A stretch of 64,000 nucleotides of DNA from Minisyncoccota bacterium (GTDB lineage: Bacteria > Patescibacteriota > Minisyncoccia > Phycocordibacterales > GCA-2747955): positions 19,985 to 83,984 of the forward strand of contig JAHDEI010000001.1 of the NCBI GenBank assembly GCA_020628915.1, given 5' to 3'. Below are positions 1,451-1,635 of this stretch, piece after piece; the first letter of the stretch is position 1; every line of letters starts with the position of its first letter. Both the position numbers and the translations under genes were made by a program. The notes below the pieces were generated by a model. It searched no databases and was not told the DNA's origin. It worked only from the letters and a program-made list of their open reading frames with translations.

Positions 1451-1472
1451 GCGCTCTCAAGGGAGAACTGAT

Positions 1473-1589
1473 ATGATATCGATCATTAGTTGCTCTGGTT
1501 TCCTCACTATTGTGAGACGTCCGAGTAGCAGTAGAGAGATTAGGGAACCCACAGTGGAGTCTCCCTCTACAGCAACACGACACAACTAA
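1473..1589 (+). CDS. Possible 38-aa ORF (MISIISCSGFLTIVRRPSSSREIREPTVESPSTATRHN) inside a structured RNA region
   Basis: AAGGGAGA sits 7 nt upstream of the ATG. The ORF is too short for the ORF track. This may instead be part of a noncoding RNA. A possible TTGCGC-17-TATGAT promoter lies at 1449-1477. Confidence 0.25.
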   Translation: MISIISCSGFLTIVRRPSSSREIREPTVESPSTATRHN

Positions 1590-1606
1590 GACAGGGTCTC
1601 CCCTGT

Positions 1607-1635
1607 TTCACCAGAGCTTCTAGTTTTACTAGAAG
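1607..1635 (+). terminator. Rho-independent terminator abutting the rplT start
   Basis: cttctagt-ttt-actagaag, an 8-bp perfect stem, followed by TTTTTAATTT. It ends 20 nt before the rplT ATG. Confidence 0.7.

Follow-up and report, generated by a model that had tools for sequence, protein, structure and literature searches.

The window analyzed here is a whole stretch of 64,000 nucleotides from a Minisyncoccota bacterium (contig JAHDEI010000001.1 of assembly GCA_020628915.1, positions 19,985 to 83,984), and coordinates refer to this stretch unless a related locus is named. Its start carries the following features:

up to 461: 3' end of infC
468-659: rpmI
667-697: rpmI terminator
755-1012 and 1026-1238: two small ORFs with no family match
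1248-1272: terminator
1293-1320: strong promoter
1350-1405: 18-aa hydrophobic ORF
1418-1441: terminator
1451-1635: segment singled out by an earlier sequence-only reading
1656-2393, plus strand: rplT, with an L20 N-terminal domain and a C-terminal helix-hairpin-helix domain (PF00453, E=4.9e-30; HHH_5, E=1.1e-7; TIGR01032 rplT_bact, E=1.1e-31)

The rplT gene starts at the ATG at 1656, and the region upstream of this codon is devoid of a Shine-Dalgarno sequence. The database entry for the L20 protein is 237 aa long and hence begins at the second methionine; alignment with homologs that begin MARVKR... supports 1656, rather than the downstream methionine, as the start. In this protein, L20 is joined by a lysine-rich linker to the C-terminal helix-hairpin-helix domain, which is also fused to other ribosomal proteins (L21 and S2) in NCBIfam models. 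The fusion is frequent in the relatives and dispensable for the leader described below, which is also present in two loci lacking the fusion (L111, with an L20 of 174 aa, and L113, with one of 134 aa). Convergent with rplT, a 125-aa membrane-like ORF lies on the minus strand (2589-2966), and its similarity to SemiSWEET transporters is weak and sub-threshold (E=0.0024; 18 bits against a cutoff of 100).

The approximately 750 bp between the rpmI terminator and the leader promoter (700-1445) constitute an insert that is found in no related locus. The two small ORFs in it (755-1012 and 1026-1238) have no match in Pfam or NCBIfam; each is preceded by a good Shine-Dalgarno sequence, and the product of each has cysteines and histidines arranged as Cys-x2-4-Cys ... 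His-x4-6-His, reminiscent of a C2H2 zinc finger. They are followed by a self-contained unit (1293-1441) comprising a near-consensus promoter (TTGACT-16-TATAAT), a strong Shine-Dalgarno sequence, the 18-aa ORF (1350-1405), the product of which is very hydrophobic (MGTSMLLILIILLLVISD), and a good terminator (1418-1441). From its sequence, this unit, which is absent from all related loci, looks like a gene for a small membrane peptide or a type I toxin-like gene. The 9-mer ACTAGAAGT is common to its 3' end and the leader terminator, probably by chance.

The sequence-only reading had regarded the segment at 1451-1635 as a structured RNA of roughly 160 to 180 nt ending in a terminator, which might serve as a leader of rplT under L20 autoregulation, a free-standing small RNA, a small-molecule riboswitch, or an antitoxin RNA for the neighboring peptide, or else as a gene for a 38-aa protein. 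The TTGCGC-17-TATGAT promoter that it had pointed out is indeed present at 1449-1477 on the plus strand, with the -35 element TTGCGC (1449-1454), a 17-nt spacer, and an extended -10 element, TGaTATGAT (1469-1477), in which TG occupies 1469-1470 and the hexamer TATGAT occupies 1472-1477. An alignment of the upstream sequences, anchored at the conserved core of the element, puts TTGCnn, a spacer of 16 to 17 nt, and TAnnAT in register in all 11 homologous loci. A consensus scan lists the homologous promoter in L113 and L084; in the window, the same scan lists neither the leader promoter, the -35 element of which matches the consensus at 3 of 6 positions, nor the leader terminator. Based on the conserved extended -10 promoter, transcription is predicted to start at approximately 1484-1485. 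The RNA element then occupies approximately 1485-1641 on the plus strand (~157 nt), or 1449-1641 with its promoter; thus, the segment delimited earlier holds a real element, but one that extends slightly beyond it. In four of the relatives, the rpmI terminator hairpin contains the -35 element (TTGCGC or TTGCGG) within its loop and 3' arm (L001, 3611-3640; L081, 2596-2625; L083, 2802-2831; L111, 2746-2775), and hence the same DNA serves in these loci both to terminate the upstream operon and to initiate the leader.

Homologous loci were sought by several routes. A genome scan with the L20 protein returned a single close and useful locus, L001, from a Candidatus Pacebacteria metagenome-assembled genome (MAG), most of its other matches being to the C-terminal helix-hairpin-helix domain in unrelated phyla. 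A protein search, followed by the examination of 12 contigs, supplied the further loci, which share the gene order rpmB, a lactamase_B-family gene, infC, rpmI, a gap, rplT, rnhB, truB, and mreC. A recognizable copy of the element was found in 9 of the 10 distinct rpmI-rplT gaps from these contigs and in the L001 gap. With the window included, this amounts to 11 sequence types of one narrow lineage; these 11 distinct related loci all carry the element in the rpmI-rplT gap, in the same orientation as rplT. It is missing from L091, which belongs to an unrelated G+C-rich organism. Scanning a metagenome collection with the pattern GCTCTGGTTYCC-N(8-38)-GAYGTCCGAG returned 15 stretches, of which three are real (L092, L097, and L105) and identical to known types, so that the lineage is rare in that collection; the other 12 are chance matches in G+C-rich coding sequence. 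We also built a covariance model (R1) from a MAFFT alignment with helices assigned by hand. This model found each known locus once, on the plus strand, with 69 to 160 bits, and gave one match in the 64-kb window; across the window and about 80 unrelated loci it returned nothing further except four sub-threshold chance matches (12.7 to 18.5 bits; E of 0.03 to 0.9). The U-run at the end of the element is separated from the rplT start codon by 5 to 25 nt in the window and six other sequence types, leaving no room for a separate rplT promoter in those types. In L111, 35 nt separate the hairpin from the AUG. In L001 and L081, this distance is about 170 nt and is taken up by a second structured element, also about 170 nt long, which follows the leader terminator and precedes rplT (L001, 3826-4002; L081, 2809-2978); hence, the design is not uniform across the lineage. 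The core of this second element reads GAG(A/U)CGUACGUC(A/G)GUACGGUGAA, and 10 of its 30 predicted pairs are changed on both sides between the two loci; it has no Rfam match and is absent from the window.

The region is structured beyond what its composition would yield: the minimum free energy (MFE) of 1440-1660 is -62.8 kcal/mol, against -49.9 +/- 4.3 kcal/mol for dinucleotide shuffles (z = -2.98), only 1 of 200 shuffles being as good. In a model-based alignment of the homologs (A4), standard pairs occupy 91.9% of the cells, compared to 75.7% in shuffles and 38 to 46% with slid partners, and 22 of the 36 pairs are changed on both sides, a count reached by none of 500 shuffles. The conserved architecture is a four-way junction of helices P1 to P4, followed by a hairpin and a U-run, and the strands that join the helices of the junction are invariant (UUUC, AYGUCCGAG, and ACGACACAACUAA). 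Its parts, all on the plus strand, are as follows:

1486-1492: segment A (UUAGUUG), the 5' end of the transcript; nearly invariant, with A' or (through AUUAG) the terminator 5' arm as partner
1492-1499: segment B, the 5' strand of P1 (GCUCUGGU); invariant in 12 of 12 rows, pairing with B' (Fold I) or with CCGAG at 1521-1525 (Fold II)
1503-1516: P2 hairpin, CUCAC-UAUU-GUGAG; variable in sequence and length, 4 of 5 pairs changed on both sides, 98.3% paired
1517-1525: J2/3, the invariant joining segment ACGUCCGAG, the CCGAG of which is complementary to CUC(U)GG of segment B
1528-1573: P3 domain, with the basal helix GC.GUAGAG/CUCUAC.GC; 8 of 9 basal pairs changed on both sides
1537-1547 and 1557-1565: conserved internal region of P3, AGAUUAGGGAA and GAGUCUCCC, respectively
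1574-1590: J3/4 (AACACGACACAACUAAG), including A' (CAACUAA, 1583-1589)
1591-1606: P4 hairpin, ACAGGG-UCUC-CCCUGU; 6 of 6 pairs changed on both sides
1610-1617: segment B', the 3' strand of P1 (ACCAGAGC)
1617-1641: terminator-like hairpin CUUCUAGU-UUU-ACUAGAAG and U-run; -7.8 kcal/mol

The structured RNA of the sequence-only reading gains support from two of the checks suggested along with it, folding and covariation: the region folds more stably than its shuffles, and compensatory changes are numerous in P2, P3, P4, and the distal terminator stem. Both of its perfect hairpins are also present, ACAGGG-TCTC-CCCTGT at 1591-1606 and CTTCTAGT-TTT-ACTAGAAG at 1617-1635, the latter followed by TTTTTAATTT. 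The tip of P3 is variable, ranging from 0 to about 60 nt, and P4 is absent in L087 and L113, the latter of which is also devoid of J3/4. P1 is 93.8% paired, and its changes are solely from U-A to U-G; an inverted repeat (I6), in which 1487-1499 is 85% complementary to 1610-1622, encompasses it. In the terminator stem, the base (GCUUCU/AGRAG) is invariant and the distal half covaries, with 4 of 8 pairs changed on both sides. In the window, the hairpin is followed directly by UUUUU, as in an intrinsic terminator, albeit a weak one; across the homologs its strength is likewise low (-7 to -11 kcal/mol), and the consensus scan flags the homologous hairpins of L001, L084, and L113 as terminator-like. 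The element displays the general features of a ribosomal-protein leader, namely covarying 5' structure, a conserved promoter upstream, and rplT directly downstream, and we regard it as very probably a conserved structured leader of that gene. In one relative, L089, the gap holds only a stub, CUCCGGUUCCC-hairpin-GAAGUCCGAGUA, 30 nt before rplT. There, the stretch directly after rpmI (L089, 2925-3000) keeps only the hairpin CUCCGG-UUCC-stem-GAAGU-CCGAG, the promoter, P3, P4, P1, and terminator having been lost; it may be a minimal operator or a remnant.

The invariant segments of the RNA have more than one possible partner each. Segment B can pair through CUC(U)GG with the CCGAG of J2/3, forming a hairpin that encloses P2 (B:J2/3). 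The five core pairs are preserved in every one of the 12 rows, the pair after them alternates between G-U and G-C, and two outer pairs are changed on both sides in L087 only. Segment A can pair with A' in J3/4, as judged by eye and with RNAduplex (L087, L090, and L109 stand in a different register in A4). This A:A' pairing comprises 7 bp in the seven loci in which J3/4 is conserved, with duplexes of -6 to -9 kcal/mol, and 5 bp in L090 and L109, where J3/4 is shifted; in L087, it is retained through a compensated change (UAGAUAG/CUAUUUA), and L113 lacks A'. Coexistence of A:A' with P1 as a pseudoknot was considered and discarded, since A' and B' abut or overlap in L087, and we therefore treat the two as alternatives. 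Finally, AUUAG at the 5' end can pair with CURAU of the terminator 5' arm (A:T5'), extending P1 across a UU/UU loop, as is apparent in I6. A:T5' is kept in 89% of cases, with one-sided changes only, and no double change occurs in P1 and A:T5'. Because P1, B:J2/3, A:A', and this antiterminator consist mostly of invariant bases, their support comes from conserved complementarity and not from compensatory change.

Folding calculations place these alternatives close to one another. Fold I (P1 forced) and Fold II (B:J2/3 forced) lie -2.8 to +3.1 kcal/mol apart in all 11 sequences. With the terminator 3' arm withheld, a state that RNA passes through while being transcribed, P1 and A:T5' are predicted as the MFE structure in every homolog, L087 included, and the pairing probability of A:T5' is ~1.0 in 10 of 11; at full length, the terminator is preferred (P of 0.87 to 1.0), the antiterminated state costing from 0.7 kcal/mol (in the window) to 6.5 kcal/mol. 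When the window RNA is folded in stages, the B:J2/3 hairpin is predicted to form first (P of 0.99), then A:A' beside it (P of 0.5 to 0.7); once B' is made, a full switch to P1 follows, then A:T5' (P of 1.0), and then the terminator (P of 0.90).

None of the catalogued RNA families accounts for the element. The Rfam comparison suggested by the sequence-only reading matched no family, the Firmicutes L20 leader included: with Rfam 15 at the gathering threshold, the whole window gives nothing in or near the element, with four tRNA matches elsewhere (27859-49921); a search of 1230-1700 at E up to 10 gives two sub-threshold chance matches only, one (ctRNA_p42d) on the upstream terminator and the other, a microRNA model, on the minus strand; and five homologous loci give no match. 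The L20 leader model itself (RF00558; gathering threshold, 58.7 bits) matches neither the window, nor 1230-1700 at E up to 10, nor the five homologs, and the same search recovers it in a positive control, the Clostridium locus L041, with 66.7 bits. A search of the literature turned up no rplT leader described from Patescibacteria.

Several parallels are nevertheless suggested by other L20 leaders. L20 autoregulates through unrelated RNA structures in Escherichia coli and Bacillus subtilis. In the B. subtilis infC leader, L20 stabilizes an anti-antiterminator (Choonee et al. 2007, PMC1865079). Like the element described here, the Firmicutes leader (RF00558) is a 5' leader with its own promoter, an intrinsic terminator at its end, and rplT in its transcription unit; it adopts mutually exclusive anti-antiterminator, antiterminator, and terminator folds, as predicted here, and its most conserved part is the early 5' hairpin region, here the proposed operator. 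It differs in that it lies upstream of infC in an infC-rpmI-rplT unit, whereas the present element follows rpmI and its terminator and precedes rplT alone, has a four-way junction spanning 120 to 215 nt, and lacks the Firmicutes operator signature AAGaAGAAGC...GCUUCUCgCC. In E. coli, the L20 operator comprises a pseudoknot and an irregular stem upstream of rpmI (Guillier et al., as summarized in PMC3616713); it is the translation of rpmI that these sites control, and translational coupling extends the effect to rplT. The E. coli operator shares with our proposal autogenous control by L20 and, given the possible A:A' pairing, a long-range interaction between a 5' segment and an internal one; in contrast, rpmI here has its own terminator, the element has its own promoter and terminator, and there is no sequence or model similarity between the two. 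A further candidate, the L20 leader of Deltaproteobacteria (Eckert and Weinberg 2020, PMC7247131), is also, like the other candidate ribosomal-protein leaders of that study, a lineage-restricted structured motif upstream of a ribosomal-protein gene, which rests on covariation rather than experiment and for which the ligand was assigned because a single ribosomal-protein gene follows. Compared with that motif, the present element, from Patescibacteria-like MAGs, is much larger, multi-branched, and equipped with an explicit expression platform.

L20 sites are described as having in common an AA dimer next to a helix and two consecutive G-C pairs, an arrangement that mimics the junction of H40 and H41 in 23S rRNA (PMC7247131, PMC3616713, PMC1865079). 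This mimicry, reported for the deltaproteobacterial motif, could not be established here. P1 and B:J2/3 each contain invariant GG/CC pairs. An AA dimer common to all members is lacking, the AA of CUAA being lost in L090, L109, L087, and L113. Local alignment of all 12 sequences with E. coli 23S rRNA is no better than that of shuffles, and the words shared near H39/H40 (ACGUCC at 960 and AGGGAA at 975) are not statistically supported; as these alignments are at chance level, we dropped rRNA mimicry as evidence.

Taking these findings together, we propose, at a probability of roughly 0.55, that the rplT leader is a riboswitch-like transcription attenuator acting on rplT alone, with L20 as its likeliest effector in an autogenous circuit. 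Among the options raised by the sequence-only reading, this is the one that position, promoter, covarying helices, and the terminator/antiterminator design favor. The proposal of L20-dependent termination draws on an attenuator anatomy like that of B. subtilis, rplT as the sole downstream gene, the lack of room for a promoter in most of the loci, and the lack of a Shine-Dalgarno sequence. From gene context alone, L20 is somewhat more likely than not to be the effector; because rplT is the only downstream gene, L20 is assigned as ligand on the same basis as in the work of Eckert and Weinberg (PMC7247131). The conserved structure, its place next to rplT, and the competing pairings come from computation, whereas the ligand, the fold bound by it, and control at termination rather than translation are what we infer. 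The following course of events may be envisaged. Transcription would begin at approximately 1485 from the conserved extended -10 promoter, and the nascent RNA would first form a long hairpin, closed by pairing of B with the CCGAG of J2/3 and enclosing the variable P2; A, at the 5' end, could in most loci pair with CAACUAA (A') as well, giving Fold II, the proposed operator. Once B' (ACCAGAGC) is made, the stronger P1 (B:B') could displace the early hairpin and close the four-way junction of Fold I. P1 would then be extended over the UU/UU loop by pairing of AUUAG with CUAGU of the terminator 5' arm, constituting an antiterminator that permits read-through into rplT. Excess L20 would hold the early hairpin or the junction and block P1 and its extension, whereupon the weak terminator would fold and transcription would stop 15 nt before rplT. 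The leader would thus be a three-state attenuator, with Fold II as the anti-antiterminator, P1 with the paired 5' end as the antiterminator, and the weak terminator as the third state. Under this mechanism, the segments expected to be protected by L20 are CUCUGGUUUCC and ACGUCCGAG. The latter is retained in the L089 stub, which keeps just the B-P2-J2/3 hairpin.

Other readings of the same leader have to be weighed against this proposal. One, which we consider unlikely, is that it binds L20 and acts on translation, the bound protein or RNA blocking or trapping the ribosome and the hairpin with its U-run being mainly structural. The hairpin does end 15 to 25 nt before the AUG in the window, L083, L084, L090, L107, and L109, the rplT start region is A/U rich and lacks a Shine-Dalgarno sequence, the L089 stub hairpin lies 30 nt before the start without a terminator, and E. 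coli L20 acts on translation (PMC3616713); yet the distance to the AUG is not conserved, as L111, L001, and L081 illustrate, the U-run always follows the hairpin, homologous copies of which are flagged as terminator-like, and control of translation would give no role to the conserved potential of the 5' end to pair with the terminator 5' arm. A slightly less likely possibility is a free-standing small RNA gene of about 157 nt, with a trans-acting or housekeeping product, rplT being expressed by leaky read-through. Promoter, structured RNA, and terminator do form a complete unit, and since the terminator is favored at equilibrium (P of 0.87 to 1.0), a short RNA could accumulate. In the loci searched, however, every copy of the element immediately precedes rplT in the same orientation, with none at any other place, and in 7 of 9 sequence types rplT lacks a separate promoter, which makes the RNA its 5' UTR by position; moreover, no housekeeping family in Rfam matches, and the alternative pairings with the terminator arm suggest regulated termination. 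Less likely again is a riboswitch for a small molecule or some other non-L20 factor, such as an assembly or growth signal; the synthesis of L20 would then be tied to a metabolic or growth signal. Typical riboswitch anatomy is seen in the four-way junction, the joining strands of which are invariant, together with two nearly isoenergetic folds and an expression platform, and there is no demonstrable similarity to the L20 site on rRNA. However, rplT is the only associated gene, every characterized leader of an L20 gene responds to L20 (PMC1865079, PMC3616713, PMC7247131), and the search at E up to 10 yields none of the known riboswitch families. If such a non-L20 aptamer were nonetheless borne out, it would be a new riboswitch class gating L20 synthesis in ultra-small Patescibacteria. 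Hence, both the free-standing RNA and the small-molecule riboswitch of the sequence-only reading appear less likely than a leader of rplT.

The two remaining options are scarcely credible. A 38-aa protein would be encoded at 1473-1589, where the AAGGGAGA ribosome-binding site 6 nt before the ATG at 1473 and a frame open for 38 codons are indeed present. This ATG is nonetheless part of the conserved -10 hexamer, TATGAT, and stands upstream of the predicted transcription start; in the homologs, the frame is broken or begins elsewhere, with varying starts and lengths of 15 to 81 aa (in L001, it stops after 15 codons), indels in the hairpins are not multiples of three, substitutions compensate in the RNA stems, and Pfam returns no match. 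With its start inside the -10 box, its frame unconserved, and its indels out of step with codons, we reject this ORF, and the annotation should be corrected in that it is not to be called a gene. An antisense or antitoxin RNA directed against the neighboring 18-aa peptide gene (1350-1405) is suggested by CTTCTAGT (1617-1624), which is complementary to ACTAGAAG (1402-1409), located where the peptide ORF has its stop codon. This match, however, is of chance size, at 8 to 9 nt: the same 461 nt contain several chance repeats that are just as long. Furthermore, the RNA is conserved in the 10 other sequence types without the peptide gene, and in several of these the leader promoter directly overlaps the rpmI terminator.

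Autogenous control of ribosomal proteins by leaders in their own mRNAs is a classic regulatory system, in which unrelated RNA solutions have arisen for the same protein in different phyla, and L20 is a ribosomal protein of early assembly. To our knowledge, very little regulatory RNA has been described from the candidate phyla radiation. Leaders responding to L20 have been characterized in Gammaproteobacteria and Firmicutes, with a candidate in Deltaproteobacteria (PMC7247131). The present leader occurs in a little-known group of uncultured bacteria and is matched by no catalogued RNA family; it is best read as a new structural variant within the known class of ribosomal-protein leaders, which is probably L20 responsive and acts by attenuation. 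Even with L20 as the ligand, it would represent a new structural class of L20 leader, one controlling rplT alone. If this is true, a further unrelated and unusually elaborate L20-associated leader would add a case in which the convergent evolution of RNA-protein recognition can be studied, and, as a compact attenuator built around two clear folds, it would lend itself to testing. It would also mean that reduced genomes such as these retain feedback control over ribosome assembly.
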